This document shows, piece by piece, positions 1 to 4,668 of a stretch of 4,668 bases of DNA. The position numbers and the translations under genes were made by a program. This DNA is from a virus (lineage: Duplodnaviria; Heunggongvirae; Uroviricota; Caudoviricetes). The stretch lies in IMG/VR virus record IMGVR_UViG_2548876867_000016, positions 1 to 4,668 of that record. One strand, written 5' to 3'. The notes under the pieces are model-generated. The model did not search any database. It was not told where the DNA came from and saw nothing but the letters and a program-made list of their open reading frames with translations. Numbering within the stretch: the first letter of the stretch is position 1; every line of letters begins with the position of its first letter.

Positions 1-267
1 ATGCGCAGAAAAGAATCAAACGTTAGCAGTTTGCCGGAACTCACCAATTTTGAGGTAAGCTATTCCCTAGTTACCAATGAAGTTTACTTGTCTGCATCCT
101 TCACTGATAACATGGCCTGTATACCAAACTGGCCCTTACAAGAATTTCCGGATCAACTAATATGCATTTCTCGAGCAAAAGCTATTGCCCTAATCGAAGA
201 GCTCCAGAAGACCATCGACTATATGGACGCAGGAATCGATCGACAATCAGGTAGCCTGCTCCAGTAG
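1..267 (+). CDS. Hypothetical small protein (88 aa), AT-rich; function unknown
   Basis: Open frame from ATG at 1-3 to TAG at 265-267. No recognisable motif. Lies in the AT-rich left block. The window starts exactly at this ATG, so it may be a true start or a window-edge coincidence. A second frame stays open from 255 to 440, so a frameshifted longer gene is possible. Confidence 0.4.
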   Translation: MRRKESNVSSLPELTNFEVSYSLVTNEVYLSASFTDNMACIPNWPLQEFPDQLICISRAKAIALIEELQKTIDYMDAGIDRQSGSLLQ

Positions 268-400
268 CTGGCGAGTTTTATACTCGTTCCCTGCAACAAT
301 GGGCTTTTGGTAAGGCACTCACAAATAAGGAATTCGTTAAGGCTTTTGTTCTGGAGACTCTGAAAGATACAAGGAATCAGTTGATGGCTGGTTTGATCAT

Positions 401-441
401 ACTAATTAATATATTGTCAGACTCACAATATATTAATTAGT
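401..441. promoter_or_regulatory. Near-perfect palindrome (17-bp arms, 7-bp spacer): candidate operator or protein-binding site upstream of the 281-aa ORF
   Basis: Seen directly: ACTAATTAATATATTGT (401-417) and ACAATATATTAATTAGT (425-441) are exact reverse complements around CAGACTC. It sits in the intergenic region between the 88-aa ORF and the 569 start. Function is inferred only. Confidence 0.3.
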
Positions 442-568
442 GGTAGAACATAAAACCGAGTTCTTGACTTTCAATAGCTATTATATGCGATCAACAACCT
501 TAACCACCTCCTTATATTTTATGAGATACTCAAACAATTTAAATTTATGAGCAAAGGAAAATAATAAA

Positions 569-1414
569 GTGAATAAAAATCCCTGGGATATTCCAGCATG
601 GCACGCTCTGGGCCGAGAAGCATCTTTAGTTACACAGCTCATTGGTTCTGGGGCAACAGCCATAGGTAAAGCCAATTATGCAGACAAAATAGGTGAATAT
701 TACACAGCATTTTTTGGGCTTTCTGTAGGTTTTGAGAGACTTGCTAAACTAATACTTGTTGCACACTATGCCATTGAACACAAAGGGAAAATGCCTGATG
801 AGAATATTGTAAGAAAATTTGGACATAAGCTCATTGAATTAACCAACGAGGTTGATAGTATTTCTAAAAAAATGCAACTATCTCTGAGATATTCACGTCC
901 TACACATAAAATTACCTACAAAATACTTGAATGTTTAGATTCCTTTGCTGATGCCCGACGGGGACGTTACGCAAATTTCTCCTCATTAAGCAACCCCAAT
1001 TTAACCAATAATGAACCTATTAATAAATGGTGGGGAGAAGTAGCCGAGAGTATCCTTGAAAAACATTATTATTATACAGTTGAACAAAGACGTGTTGAAG
1101 AAAATGCTAGGTTTATCAATGCCACTCTTTCACCGTATACAACGGTCATGTATATGAATGAAAGTACCAACATTATGCAAGACCTTATATCAGCATCCAT
1201 CCGTACTGGACAAAATACCATTGTTCAAAAGTGGGGAAGATTCTATTCTCTTAGCATCGCTCGTTGGCTTGCCACAGTATTAGCAGAACTGTCTGATATA
1301 GCTTCTCATAAATATGGAATAATTAGTTTTTATGGCCTTAGTGAACATTGTTGCAGTTATATAGTTGAAGATAGTTTTTTAAAAAACAGAAAAATATGGC
1401 CACTTCGCCAATAG
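569..1414 (+). CDS. Hypothetical protein (281 aa), AT-rich orphan gene; candidate accessory or defence cargo, function not recognisable from sequence
   Basis: Uninterrupted 846-nt frame. GTG start at 569 preceded by AAGGA (554-558); stop TAG at 1412-1414. Composition is clearly more AT-rich than the phage genes to the right. It converges on the invertase remnant, whose stop is 5 bp away. The predicted protein is hydrophilic with no obvious transmembrane stretch. Confidence 0.7.
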   Translation: MNKNPWDIPAWHALGREASLVTQLIGSGATAIGKANYADKIGEYYTAFFGLSVGFERLAKLILVAHYAIEHKGKMPDENIVRKFGHKLIELTNEVDSISKKMQLSLRYSRPTHKITYKILECLDSFADARRGRYANFSSLSNPNLTNNEPINKWWGEVAESILEKHYYYTVEQRRVEENARFINATLSPYTTVMYMNESTNIMQDLISASIRTGQNTIVQKWGRFYSLSIARWLATVLAELSDIASHKYGIISFYGLSEHCCSYIVEDSFLKNRKIWPLRQ

Positions 1415-1435
1415 TTAACTAGAAAATCTGCATAA

Positions 1436-1451
1436 GGGGGAGAAATCCCCC
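1436..1451. terminator. Short GC stem-loop (GGGGGA-GAAA-TCCCCC) at the junction of the convergent 281-aa ORF and the invertase remnant; possible terminator
   Basis: Seen directly: 6-bp stem with a 4-nt loop. It is 22 bp downstream of the + ORF stop. There is no clean T-run on the + strand; on the - strand it is followed by TTATGCAGATTTTCT. It lies inside the non-homologous tail of the invertase remnant frame. Weak call. Confidence 0.25.
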
Positions 1452-1624
1452 ACCTGTAATAACATAACTACTAAAATTAACACCTTGTTCGCACAACTCC
1501 TCCACCAGCACGACAAGATGCCGCACACTGCGCCCCAGCCGATCCAGCTTCCAGACAACCAGAGTGTCACCTGCCGATAATGTCCTGAGCAGTTTTTTCA
1601 GTCCCGGCCTTTCGGACTTTGTAC

Positions 1625-1712
1625 CGCTTATCTTGTCTTCAAAAATCAGCTCGCATCCTGCACAGTTCAGCGCATTACGTTGTAGATCTGTGTTCTGGTC
1701 ATTTGTTGACAC
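1625..1712. promoter_or_regulatory. Probable Fis-dependent recombinational enhancer within the 5' coding region of the invertase gene (approximate bounds)
   Basis: In Hin/Gin/Cin systems the enhancer lies inside the 5' end of the invertase gene. The minus-strand sequence here, GTGTCAACAAATGACCAGAACACAGATCTACAACGTAATGCGCTG, closely resembles the Hin enhancer-region sequence as I remember it (GTGTCAACAATTGACCAAAATATCGATTTACAGCGTAATGCGCTT). Exact Fis-site boundaries were not determined. Confidence 0.35.
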
Positions 1713-1787
1713 ACATACATAGCCAATAAGCATAGTGGATCCCTCTGACAAAAGCAGGAATGATGCCATTTGCTCGTTATTTCTGCA

Positions 1788-1813
1788 TTTTCATAAACGT
1801 TGGTTTGGGAGAA
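1788..1813. repeat. 26-bp invertase crossover site (hix/gix/pix-like), left boundary of the invertible segment
   Basis: Minus-strand reading is TTCTCCCAAACCAACGTTTATGAAAA; compare hixL TTCTTGAAAACCAAGGTTTTTGATAA as remembered. It is about 55 bp upstream of the invertase start. The inner half-site GGTTTGGGAGAA (1802-1813) is the exact reverse complement of the inner half-site of the right-hand site. Confidence 0.8.
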
Positions 1814-2161
1814 GCGGCGAAAAGGGATGTGGGTACAGGAGAAAATCAGATACCGGATATGTCAGCCTGGAAAAGAAATCCGAGTTCTAATCGCTGGAGA
1901 AAATTGCCTGATGGAACCATCATTCAAATGGGAATATCAGCATCAGGGCCATTAGGCTCACCTGTAAATATCACCCTGCCGATATCTTTCAGCAATACCA
2001 ATTATTGTGTTGTTGCATCGTACGATAATGCACGGTCAGGTGTGTCAACAATGGTTAGTTTTGCAGCATTACCTGTTTCACCATCGCAATTTTCCCTGAT
2101 GTCATCTGTGACTGAGCAAGGAATAAATCCTTTTGCTTACTGGATTGCTTTTGGAGATTGA
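1802..2161 (+). CDS. Alternative tail-fibre C-terminal cassette, promoterless and startless in this orientation; would be fused to the constant N-terminus after inversion
   Basis: The frame runs through the crossover site encoding GLGE, the same residues and frame as the expressed fibre gene at the other site. It continues AAKRDVGTGENQ...AYWIAFGD to TGA at 2159-2161, with no similarity to the currently expressed C-terminus. The ORF-track start at 1760 lies upstream of the site and is probably not used. Confidence 0.7.
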   Translation, partial: GLGEAAKRDVGTGENQIPDMSAWKRNPSSNRWRKLPDGTIIQMGISASGPLGSPVNITLPISFSNTNYCVVASYDNARSGVSTMVSFAALPVSPSQFSLMSSVTEQGINPFAYWIAFGD

Positions 2162-2164
2162 TAA

Positions 2165-2584
2165 ATGGACAGATACTTCTATTCACAAAAAGAAAATGGT
2201 TTTTTTACCGATTTAAATAAAGCACCTTCAGATGCTGTTGAGATAACCACGGATGAATGGCTGTCACTACTGGATGGTCAGGATAATGGCATGAAAATAG
2301 TCAGCAATCAGGAGGGATATCCGGTTTTGACAGAGCAACCACCTTTATCAAAAGAAAACCTTATTGCATTGGCAGAGTTGAAAAAAGGAAAACTTATTAA
2401 TGAAGCCAACGAGCACATGAACAGCAGGCAATGGCCTGGTAAAGCGGCTATTGGTCGTCTGAAAGGTGAGGAACTGGCGCAATATAATTTGTGGCTGGAT
2501 TATCTGGACGCACTGGAGCTGGTCGATACTTCCAGTGCGCCAGATATTGAATGGCCTACGCCTCCGGCAGTTCAGGCCAGATGA
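2165..2584 (+). CDS. Alternative tail-fibre assembly protein (Tfa/U-like, 139 aa), partner of the silent cassette
   Basis: ATG at 2165, 3 nt after the upstream stop. C-terminus ...LWLDYLDALELVDTSSAPDIEWPTPP parallels the C-terminus of the other assembly protein (...LDYIDAVTVTDTSTAPDIIWPELP). Position and size match the second assembly gene of Mu/P1/e14-type invertible segments. Confidence 0.8.
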   Translation: MDRYFYSQKENGFFTDLNKAPSDAVEITTDEWLSLLDGQDNGMKIVSNQEGYPVLTEQPPLSKENLIALAELKKGKLINEANEHMNSRQWPGKAAIGRLKGEELAQYNLWLDYLDALELVDTSSAPDIEWPTPPAVQAR

Positions 2585-3158
2585 TATCCGGCGCGGTGCT
2601 GGTATCTGTTACCGTCACCGCGTCAATGTAATCCAGCACGGCGTTAAGTCGGGTTGTTTCTGCCTGCGTCAACTTCCGTCCGGCCTGCAATTTCAGTTGA
2701 ATCAGACTAATGGAAGCCATTGCAGTATCAATCAGTGACTGACGCTGTGCTTCTGCCGCGTCTACTGCGGCGCTATGCTGTGCCTCGGTATCCGTCACCC
2801 ATTTCTCACCATCCCATTTATCGTATGGCGTTAACGGGGCGATAGTGGTTGTATTATCAGGGTAATCACCCGGAACTGTGATTTCTTTTGATTCTCCTGT
2901 TTCGGTGCTAAAGACGATTTCACCGCGATGGTCTGGCACATATTCCCATGAGTTAAAATCAGCAGATCGGCAGATTGCATAACCAGCTTTGTATGCGCCT
3001 GGGGCATCTAAACAGGAATATGCCGGAATGCCGACACCAATAGCAAGATATTCAGTTGAAGCTGAAATATATTCCCGACTCATGACATCAAAGTTATAAA
3101 CAGTAATTTCTCCTGCCATAGTGGCAATTAATTCACTGTTTAATTCTGCGTTATTCAT
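2556..3158 (-). CDS. Tail-fibre assembly protein (Tfa/U-like, 200 aa), expressed partner in the current orientation
   Basis: Its ATG (3158-3156) overlaps the fibre stop by one base (TAATG), suggesting translational coupling. Conserved assembly-protein C-terminal motif ...DTSTAPDIIWPELPEA. Its 3' end overlaps the convergent alternative assembly gene by 29 bp. Confidence 0.85.
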   Translation of the reverse strand: MNNAELNSELIATMAGEITVYNFDVMSREYISASTEYLAIGVGIPAYSCLDAPGAYKAGYAICRSADFNSWEYVPDHRGEIVFSTETGESKEITVPGDYPDNTTTIAPLTPYDKWDGEKWVTDTEAQHSAAVDAAEAQRQSLIDTAMASISLIQLKLQAGRKLTQAETTRLNAVLDYIDAVTVTDTSTAPDIIWPELPEA

Positions 3159-3988
3159 TATGCAGCCCTCACAATATAGTTAAAAGCGACATTTCGTGGG
3201 CGTGTTTCATTCGCACCTGCAGGTTTAGTCGTTGCCGCAACAACACCACCCTCTGTAATAGCCGGGTTGGGAATTGGGTAATTATCGAAGTCAATGGCCG
3301 GAGACAGGGGCGTGATTTGTTTTAAAATCGTGGTGCCTGTAAAACTTTCCAGAGTCTGGTCGTTAGTTCGTGAAGTCCAGATTCCCCAATAGTGGTTATG
3401 ACTGACAATCGCACCGTCCTGAAGCGTTAATAATCCCCTTCCGTTATCCACTCCACGTCCGTCATCCCAGCCACGAATAAACTCACCGCGTAAATCAGGC
3501 AATTTATTTGTCGGGTAAGCCTTTGCCAGTTCCGGGTATTCTTCAGCAGAAAAAGCCGCACCATTGCATTTCAGCCAGCCTGTCGGCGGAGTGGCGGAAG
3601 GCCACGGAACAGGCACACCAACAGGTAATGCAGAGCCTTCTCCCAAACCAAGGTTTTCGAGAGCTGTTTTCACCGTGCCATCCGATTTGATATCACCAAA
3701 CGGATTCTTGCGGCTCAGGTATTCAACAGCAAACCCCGATCCCAGCAATTCAACAAAACCGGGCAGATCACCATTATCAAGCACATCCCGTTGCGTTTTA
3801 TCACTTACAAACTGGGCCAGAGCTGCAGCAATAAAGCTGGCCTGCCGAATAACCTTATTGACTTGCGCACTGGATGCTTTCCCTGCTGTAAATCCGGATA
3901 TAAGCGCAGGCAACGCTTCCCATTCCTCCTGCGACATAACATTGGCATTTCGATCAGTTGCAAACGCTTTAAAGTCATTTTTCGCCAT
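3158..3988 (-). CDS. Tail-fibre protein: constant N-terminal part (outside the segment) fused at the crossover site to a variable C-terminal receptor-binding part with a tail-collar-like motif
   Basis: Start ATG at 3988-3986 overlaps the upstream gene stop by one base (TGATG), with GGGGAG about 10 nt upstream; an alternative in-frame ATG is at 4006. The crossover site at 3638-3663 lies in-frame and encodes ...ENLGLGEGS. The downstream part contains [24 protein letters not shown]...[11 protein letters not shown], which matches the phage tail-collar motif as I recall it. Stop TAA at 3160-3158. Confidence 0.85.
3638..3663. repeat. 26-bp invertase crossover site (hix/gix/pix-like), right boundary of the invertible segment, inside the tail-fibre coding sequence
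   Basis: Plus-strand TTCTCCCAAACCAAGGTTTTCGAGAG. The first 14 bp are identical to the minus-strand reading of the 1788-1813 site. Central AA dinucleotide at 3650-3651, as in hixL. Confidence 0.8.
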
Positions 3989-4668
3989 CAGAGTAATACT
4001 CCCCATGCCCCTACATCAAAACCACTGATGAATTCGTTATCCATGTCAAAACCAAAAAATTTAGAGCCTTCCGATGGAGTTTCCACCGAAGGTGTTTCAA
4101 TGCCCCCCGCCCATACCCCGGCGGCTTTTACTGTTAGATACCCCTGTTTAATTGCCGCAATTAACTCACGCGATACATCTGAAATATCAGTATCAGGAAA
4201 GACCCAGACCGATATCGTCATGTCCTGGTTATCGACTATCTGCATTCGCAGCCCGGATCCTGCTGTTGCCGCGTCAAGAATTGCCGGAAGCGAATCATTC
4301 CGTCCGTCCCAGTTATTAATCGCAATCTTCGCTTTAAGAATGACACGATAAGTTTCATCGCTGAGATACATGTATCCTGAATCAGGATCGTATGGTCCCT
4401 GCCATACCCCCTGATCATATCCAAGCCCGTCGGTATCCCAGCTGAAATAGACACCTGAGATAGGCTGGCTGACAACACGGCTACGTCCGATCCACAATCC
4501 AAGAATGTCAAGTTGCACACCAACCGCAGAGTCAATATCAAATGCAGTAATCAGCCCTCTGGTGGCAGCCGCAACATCAATAAGTGGCCGGGTCATCAGA
4601 TCAACATGCGCAAGAAATTTAGGTTTGGTGGCGTGGTAGTTCGTGATTAGTTCGGTGTATTTGCTCAT
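3988..4668 (-). CDS. Phage baseplate or tail structural protein (226 aa) immediately upstream of the tail-fibre gene (Mu gp48 / e14 YmfQ-like position)
   Basis: Uninterrupted 226-codon frame from ATG at 4668-4666 (the window edge) to TGA at 3990-3988, overlapping the fibre start by one base. Phage-like composition. The family assignment rests on gene order only; I do not recognise a specific motif. Confidence 0.7.

Follow-up and report, generated by a model that had tools for sequence, protein, structure and literature searches.

The closest described counterpart of the locus reported here is the P segment of prophage e14 in Escherichia coli K-12, together with its invertase PinE (Plasterk and van de Putte 1985, through a citing paper; PMC4272514 and PMC12529663). 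PinQ, from the Qin prophage, inverts this P segment at the same repeats (TTGGTTTGGGAGAAGG), a precedent for the invertase of one prophage flipping the P segment of another (PMC12529663). The G segment of phage Mu, flipped by Gin, and the C segment of P1, flipped by Cin, have the same arrangement of 26-bp inverted sites within a fibre gene and alternative C-termini that each come with an assembly protein, and the Hin/hix flagellar switch of Salmonella uses a recombinase of the same subfamily and the same 26-bp site design. A survey of programmed inversions found DUF2612, tail-fibre and tail-fibre assembly proteins enriched among them (PMC9881135). Here we analysed a 4,668-nucleotide stretch of viral DNA (IMG/VR record IMGVR_UViG_2548876867_000016, positions 1 to 4,668; the window), which holds an e14-type P segment, a 1849-bp invertible block between two 26-bp pix sites, probably flipped by a trans-acting invertase. 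It belongs to the Din family, in the manner of the e14 P segment, but it is not an autonomous system: a functional adjacent invertase is missing. Coordinates are window positions (1-4668), fibre residues follow the numbering of the 276-aa fibre unless stated otherwise, and the features are collected in Table 1.

The two crossover sites (TTTTCATAAACGTTGGTTTGGGAGAA on the left, TTCTCCCAAACCAAGGTTTTCGAGAG on the right) match at 21/26 positions when compared in inverted register. Their 12-nt inner half-sites (GGTTTGGGAGAA) are identical, and the central dinucleotide, which reads TT at the left and AA at the right site on the + strand, becomes the same once one site is inverted. The best inverted repeat of the region, 1795-1814 with 3637-3656, is 20 nt long and 95% complementary, with one mismatch. 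The exact half-site 12-mer occurs only twice in the window, at the sites and on opposite strands. With two mismatches allowed, shuffled controls gave a mean of 0.42 matches, and the window held no half-site match beyond the two sites and no other long inverted repeats. We rejected a shufflon or Min-type (p15B) system with multiple sites, as it needs more than two crossover sites and only two are present. Each site agrees at 26/26 positions with one of the two pix sites on either side of the e14 P segment (K-12 MG1655), so that chance is ruled out; both are 17-18/26 identical to Mu gix, and their positions correspond to the annotated boundaries of the Mu G segment. The repeat reported for PinQ is present at 16/16 positions at the right site and 15/16 at the left. 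Read in the fibre frame, each site spells GLGE, as residues 114-117 of the 276-aa fibre at the right site (120-123 if counted from an upstream ATG at 4006) and as residues 15-18 of an open reading frame (ORF) at 1760-2161 at the left. A first-pass annotation, made from the letters of the window, had named two inverted 26-bp sites with identical inner half-sites that both encode GLGE in the fibre frame; its coordinates proved exact, and the alignments to the e14 and Mu crossover sites bear it out.

In the present orientation, a constant part of 114 residues is followed by a Collar-type C-terminus to give a 276-aa fibre, with a 200-aa assembly chaperone downstream. In-silico inversion of the 1849 bp between the sites produced an uninterrupted 232-aa fibre, in which the same 114 residues run into a gp53-like C-terminus ending ...AYWIAFGD, accompanied by a 139-aa chaperone. 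The fibre is thus in frame in both orientations; its constant N-terminus lies outside the segment, and both C-termini and their cognate tail-fibre assembly (Tfa) genes lie inside it. The 276-aa fibre is recorded in 79 blocks of the public collection. A 282-aa fibre starting at the ATG at 4006 was considered and is not on record there, which is why we number residues by the 276-aa form. The two variable C-termini gave no BLASTP alignment to one another and carry different Pfam domains (Collar and Gp53-like_C), in agreement with their earlier description as unrelated; the similarity between the two chaperones is confined to the C-terminal ~65 aa, at 38% identity. The fibre had also been called unusually short. 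This stands in comparison with Mu S (504 aa), but not for e14-type segments, where lengths of 276 and 232 aa are normal: StfP of K-12 has 209 aa, the fibres of two e14-like prophages (L008 and L009) have 260 aa and those of sibling prophages 231-282 aa.

The invertase gene beside the left site, pin', is dead. Its codons 1-89 match K-12 PinE at 83/89 amino acids and 254/267 nucleotides, and homology stops at ~1467. The gene is cut at about codon 89 of 184, after which an unrelated tail of 15 codons follows. A Resolvase-domain ORF spans 1419-1769 on the minus strand, with the ATG at 1733 as the likeliest start, and its Pfam Resolvase match is limited to profile positions 2-98 of 145. The product is without helix E, the oligomerisation helix, and without the DNA-binding domain. 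It also carries a cysteine in place of the conserved arginine of YVRVST (R7C), a residue that we equate with catalytic R8 of resolvase. PGAP labels the gene 'incomplete; missing C-terminus' where it occurs in related E. coli chromosomes. All relatives examined, divergent ones included, share one identical truncation joint (...GVNFSSYVITGGGFLPLMQIF*), and the truncation is therefore ancestral to the prophage family. The first-pass annotation had taken the switch to be complete, which does not hold: the sites, the cassettes and the enhancer-equivalent DNA are present, and the neighbouring invertase is a truncated R7C stub, so that the segment has no enzyme of its own. The Hin enhancer is located within its invertase gene, at a distance of ~100 bp from one site (PMC3798978), and we placed a candidate enhancer stretch in the pin' stub by position from that description and by homology to pinE and gin. 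The retained 5' stub probably supplies a cis-acting enhancer. A crude scan of the invertase 5' region for the Fis consensus (G-N13-C with an AT-rich core) returned many weak candidates in the window, pinE and gin alike, and no clear pair spaced by 48 bp in the window.

Both orientations occur in natural isolates. The predicted flipped fibre is identical over 232/232 residues to a protein (P0001) that is listed in 35 blocks of the public collection. On contigs that encode P0001, the gene order is wedge, 232-aa gp53-like fibre and 139-aa Tfa on one strand, followed by the 200-aa Tfa and the Collar ORF on the other, beyond which lie a 104-aa Resolvase fragment, a 281-aa ORF, an 88-aa ORF and yfhH. 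Uninverted, the window matches a contig of E. coli draft assembly GCA_000447085.2 with 100% identity, and it aligns at 100% to L015 and L018. Its best coverage by any complete E. coli genome is at most 83%, for which reason an origin outside E. coli was considered; the perfect match to the draft assembly led us to reject it. The window inverted in silico aligned to four independent E. coli assemblies (L021-L024) as one ungapped, collinear block of 4668 nt with 3-4 mismatches, and the uninverted window aligned likewise, as a single ungapped 4668-nt block, to L010-L013. These copies fall into two haplotypes of single-nucleotide polymorphisms, each with both orientations: the unflipped L010 belongs with the flipped L022 and L023, and the unflipped L011-L013 belong with the flipped L021 and L024. 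Inside each haplotype, flipped and unflipped copies show zero other substitutions over 4668 nt, and the truncation and R7C are present in every copy of both orientations and both haplotypes. Inverted-orientation molecules, whose absence was to count against a switch, are thus found in public assemblies, with breakpoints at the sites. They agree with the in-silico inversion in exchanging everything after about residue 114 of the fibre together with the chaperone (200 aa for 139 aa), and they confirm the earlier proposal of a two-state switch of the Gin/Hin/Pin type at these sites.

Inversion is likewise evident in complete genomes, for another cassette pair of this prophage family. The segments of strains 2003-3014 (L003) and O111:H11 8D (L006) are identical at 1608/1609 positions and lie in opposite orientation, between flanks that are identical at 3997/4003 and 2998/3000 positions, so that besides the inversion the two loci differ at about 9 positions over 8.6 kb. 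One orientation of this pair was found in four assemblies and the other in five. Because flipped and unflipped copies have zero other differences and the truncation is ancestral, the flips must be recent, repeated and later than the truncation. These comparisons indicate that the death of the invertase gene was followed by repeated, recent inversions at the pix sites. Two draft contigs end at the left site, L014 at window position 1816 and L019 at 1829, and a third, L020, ends at 1495, ~28 nt into the pin stub. Such breaks, which are suggestive only, would be expected if reads supported alternative continuations (both orientations) or a second pin copy. Separately, the chicken isolates DG341-1, DG342-2, DG343-1 and DG351-2, all of 5,067,659 bp and apparently clonal, match opposite-orientation junction queries at a pin-linked segment, which is likely to be another case of flipping within a clone, here with an intact recombinase.

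As the truncation and R7C are common to flipped and unflipped relatives, flipping is most likely carried out by an invertase supplied in trans. Din-family invertases act on one another's sites. The enzyme most likely comes from another member of this family within the same cell, for example an e14-like PinE or PinQ/PinR of the Qin and Rac prophages. Strain 357900 carries the truncated-pin prophage and, elsewhere, an e14-like prophage with an intact 555-nt pinE. As a proxy for helpers, we counted the places in each chromosome record that match the pin-like 3' half at the DNA level. Among nine assemblies compared for orientation, the three chromosomes without another pin-like copy (8D, 01_3327 and 03_3013) share one orientation, and all four assemblies in the other orientation carry one or two extra pin-like copies. 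This pattern fits a dependence on helpers, in a small sample of related strains. Several points weigh against the proposed supply in trans. The link between orientation and helpers comes from 9 related assemblies and carries no phylogenetic correction; many carrier chromosomes have no second pin-like 3' half at the DNA level; annotation verifies the extra pin-like places as intact pinE in one genome only (357900); and in the source genome, as covered by the 4.7-kb window, no helper invertase was identified. In carriers with no second pin-like copy, the segment may be locked, or distant (PinQ/PinR-like) or plasmid-borne helpers may act. The K-12 case differs in that the target of PinQ there keeps its own PinE, whereas the segment here would rely wholly on helpers. 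It is quite possible, though we put it forward only tentatively, that the locus is a 'satellite switch', which lost its own invertase to replacement by a cargo gene, kept the enhancer-bearing 5' stub and has its state set by the invertases of co-resident prophages. One prophage would then govern host range in another, or perhaps an anti-adsorption product like StfE2, and flipping would occur only in strains that hold a helper.

Two other accounts of how the orientations arose need to be considered. If inversion had stopped when the invertase was truncated, the locus would be a frozen relic whose two orientations are old, separately inherited states. The truncated R7C invertase in cis, the many carrier chromosomes in which no second pin-like gene is seen at the DNA level and the report that a K-12 pinE mutant is locked in one orientation (PMC12529663) would all suit such an account. 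However, the truncation joint is identical even in divergent members and so predates them, flipped and unflipped copies in each of two haplotypes have zero other substitutions over 4668 nt, and the second pair, L003 and L006, differs at only ~9 positions over 8.6 kb besides the inversion. The haplotype, collinearity and joint data thus contradict a relic, which we regard as largely refuted on these comparisons and to which we attach hardly any credence. Alternatively, RecA-dependent homologous recombination between the short inverted repeats, rather than a site-specific invertase, could make the flips. A 20-nt repeat with one mismatch is available for this, no functional invertase is encoded in cis and some carriers have no other pin-like gene. 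Yet the repeats are just 20-26 bp, at or below the repeat length that RecA needs for efficient exchange, and they coincide exactly with the pix sites on which PinE and PinQ act; moreover, flips recur in several lineages, and only the strain set with extra pin copies shows diversity of orientation. We therefore consider RecA a very improbable cause of the inversions.

A third alternative concerns what the segment is selected for. Its main function could be a short protein that benefits the host, in the manner of StfE or StfE2, composed of a leader and whichever C-terminal domain faces the invertase stub, and blocking the adsorption of other phages rather than setting phage host range. The ORF at 1760-2161 begins with an ATG at 1760, outside the segment, and its leader MMPFARYFCIFINVGLGE is conserved with that of K-12 StfE (MPFACYFFIFINVGLGE; compared with L004 6606-6656). 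Gene callers predict a stub-side ORF in both orientations, of 132-133 aa and of 176-181 aa. For K-12, it was reported that T2 adsorption is blocked by chimeric StfE2 after PinQ-driven inversion (PMC12529663). Given the shared leader, the stub-side junction might here, too, yield a free C-terminal-domain protein, whichever way the segment lies. The K-12 result, however, involved different C-terminal alleles, no promoter-like signal above chance was found upstream of the ORF, and the prophage family looks complete, so that a role in the virion is the simpler reading. We regard an anti-adsorption protein as an unlikely main function. One relative of the prophage has modules for replication and full ones for head, terminase, lysis and immunity, which makes a real role in host range plausible.

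In the mechanism that we favour, inversion by an invertase acting in trans, the segment forms the terminal part of a temperate, myovirus-like prophage inserted beside yfhH/tadA in E. coli. The fibre gene would be transcribed from outside the block, leaving its first 114 codons fixed. Since the crossover falls inside the conserved GLGE codons, each orientation gives one and the same baseplate-attachment part a receptor-binding C-terminus of its own, and also sets the matching assembly chaperone downstream of it. By analogy with Gin, Hin, Cin and Pin, invertase dimers would bind both sites and form a synapse with the Fis-bound enhancer. Cleavage at the central AA/TT with a 2-bp stagger, rotation by 180 degrees and religation would follow, in a reaction expected to depend on Fis and supercoiling.

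The likeness to the e14 P segment extends beyond the sites (26/26 each) and the 5' part of the invertase gene (254/267 nt) to the whole layout, with a constant fibre N-terminus, two convergent pairs of cassette and Tfa gene whose Tfa genes overlap by 29 nt, as tfaP and tfaE do in e14, and an StfE-like leader ORF. The segment with the pin 5' part (1467-3715) is 97.6-98.4% identical to e14-like prophages with a YmfQ/GP46/gpV baseplate (L008 and L009), with pinE intact in one of the two. Past the right site, homology to e14-type fibres continues for 52 nt and ends at 3715. The surroundings differ: the backbone here has a DUF2612 wedge, whereas e14 has YmfQ; the invertase carries R7C and breaks off near codon 89; the cargo beside it is a HEPN-like ORF, in place of mcrA in e14; and the chromosomal site is yfhH/tadA instead of icd. 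Compared with sibling prophages at yfhH (L001-L003 and L007), the segment is 88-93% identical, in patches, and the flanks are 97-99% identical. The segment is therefore closer to e14-like prophages and the flanks are closer to the yfhH siblings, and the module is mobile, having evidently passed as a whole between unrelated tail backbones. As in Mu and P1, the invertase gene adjoins one site, at the same 80-nt offset, and the Pin stub matches Gin at 66/89 positions (the sites, at 17-18/26, match gix as given above). Mu and P1 both carry an intact invertase, unlike the segment here, and the Mu fibre is longer, with 504 aa and a constant part of 169 aa as against 276/232 aa and 114 aa. The requirement of Hin for Fis and for an enhancer in the invertase gene ~100 bp from a site may have its like in this segment, to judge from the sequence. 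In contrast to the coding cassettes here, Hin flips a promoter, and hin lies inside the invertible segment.

The wedge gene lies upstream of the fibre gene, its stop overlapping the fibre ATG (ATGA), and this order of wedge then fibre is kept in all relatives. To the left of the invertase ORF is a block of low guanine-cytosine fraction (0.376, against 0.467 in the remainder) that holds the 281-aa and 88-aa ORFs. The 88-aa ORF (1-267, + strand) matches PHROG 17793, of unknown function (E 5.8e-46), and is otherwise unannotated; it is conserved and adjoins yfhH in relatives. The AT-rich spacer between the two ORFs contains a perfect 17-bp inverted repeat with a 7-nt loop at 401-441 (ACTAATTAATATATTGT cagactc ACAATATATTAATTAGT), seen in all relatives as a self-reverse BLAST match, which could be an operator or a terminator. 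A scan of 1350-4100 for promoters and terminators gave counts at the level of shuffled sequence.

Table 1. Features of the invertible segment and its surroundings in the window.
Feature	Position	Strand	Support
Baseplate wedge gene, 226 aa, DUF2612/Phage_Wedge1	3988..4668	-	Pfam PF11041, E 3.8e-47
Tail-fibre gene, 276 aa, Collar domain	3158-3988	-	ORF and Pfam
Constant fibre N-terminus, ~114 residues (MAKNDF...ENLGLGE), outside the invertible segment	3651..3988	-	ORF/frame; PHROG 11303 tail fibre over residues 1-122
Fibre-proximal crossover site (pix) TTCTCCCAAACCAAGGTTTTCGAGAG, central AA at 3650-3651	3638..3663		26/26 to K-12 e14 site L004 4779-4804; 18/26 to Mu gix
Variable C-terminal cassette 1, Collar domain, in the fibre frame at present	3158..3637	-	Pfam Collar E 2e-15; PHROG 3100/523 tail-collar fibre
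Cassette 1 tail-fibre assembly chaperone, 200 aa, TfaE-like	2556..3158	-	Pfam Caudo_TAP E 1.7e-32; PHROG 105
Cassette 2 tail-fibre assembly chaperone, 139 aa, silent in the present orientation	2165..2584	+	Pfam Caudo_TAP E 2.3e-26
Variable C-terminal cassette 2, gp53-like, ends ...AYWIAFGD, silent as a fibre part at present	1814..2161	+	Pfam Gp53-like_C E 1.6e-13
Invertase-proximal crossover site (pix) TTTTCATAAACGTTGGTTTGGGAGAA, central TT at 1800-1801	1788..1813		26/26 to K-12 e14 site L004 6606-6631
Candidate Fis-dependent enhancer stretch in 5' invertase sequence, ~100 bp away from the closer site	1650..1712		62/63 to K-12 pinE, 50/63 to Mu gin
Dead invertase gene pin'	1419..1733	-	Codons 1 to ~89 Pin-like, then unrelated 15-codon tail; R7C

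The slot past the invertase gene (window 1-1466, compared with L004 7347-8180, L008 2687-3691, L009 2879-3652 and L032 1379-2152) holds a different cargo in each prophage, among them mcrA in e14, an SDH/Clp-fold serine protease, a LEM-3-like GIY-YIG nuclease and the HEPN-like ORF of this window, and it looks like a moron or defence hotspot. In this prophage family, replacement of the cargo removed the 3' half of the invertase gene along with it. The mechanism itself adds nothing new, since switches of the Pin, Gin, Cin and Hin type are well known and the segment is of the ordinary e14 P-segment kind. The finding is of modest interest at the population level, in that a segment goes on flipping, again and again in natural isolates, although its own recombinase is demonstrably dead. 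It probably offers a clean natural example of cross-talk between prophages, and for the annotation of phage host range it means that a 'pseudogenised invertase' need not mean a 'locked switch'.

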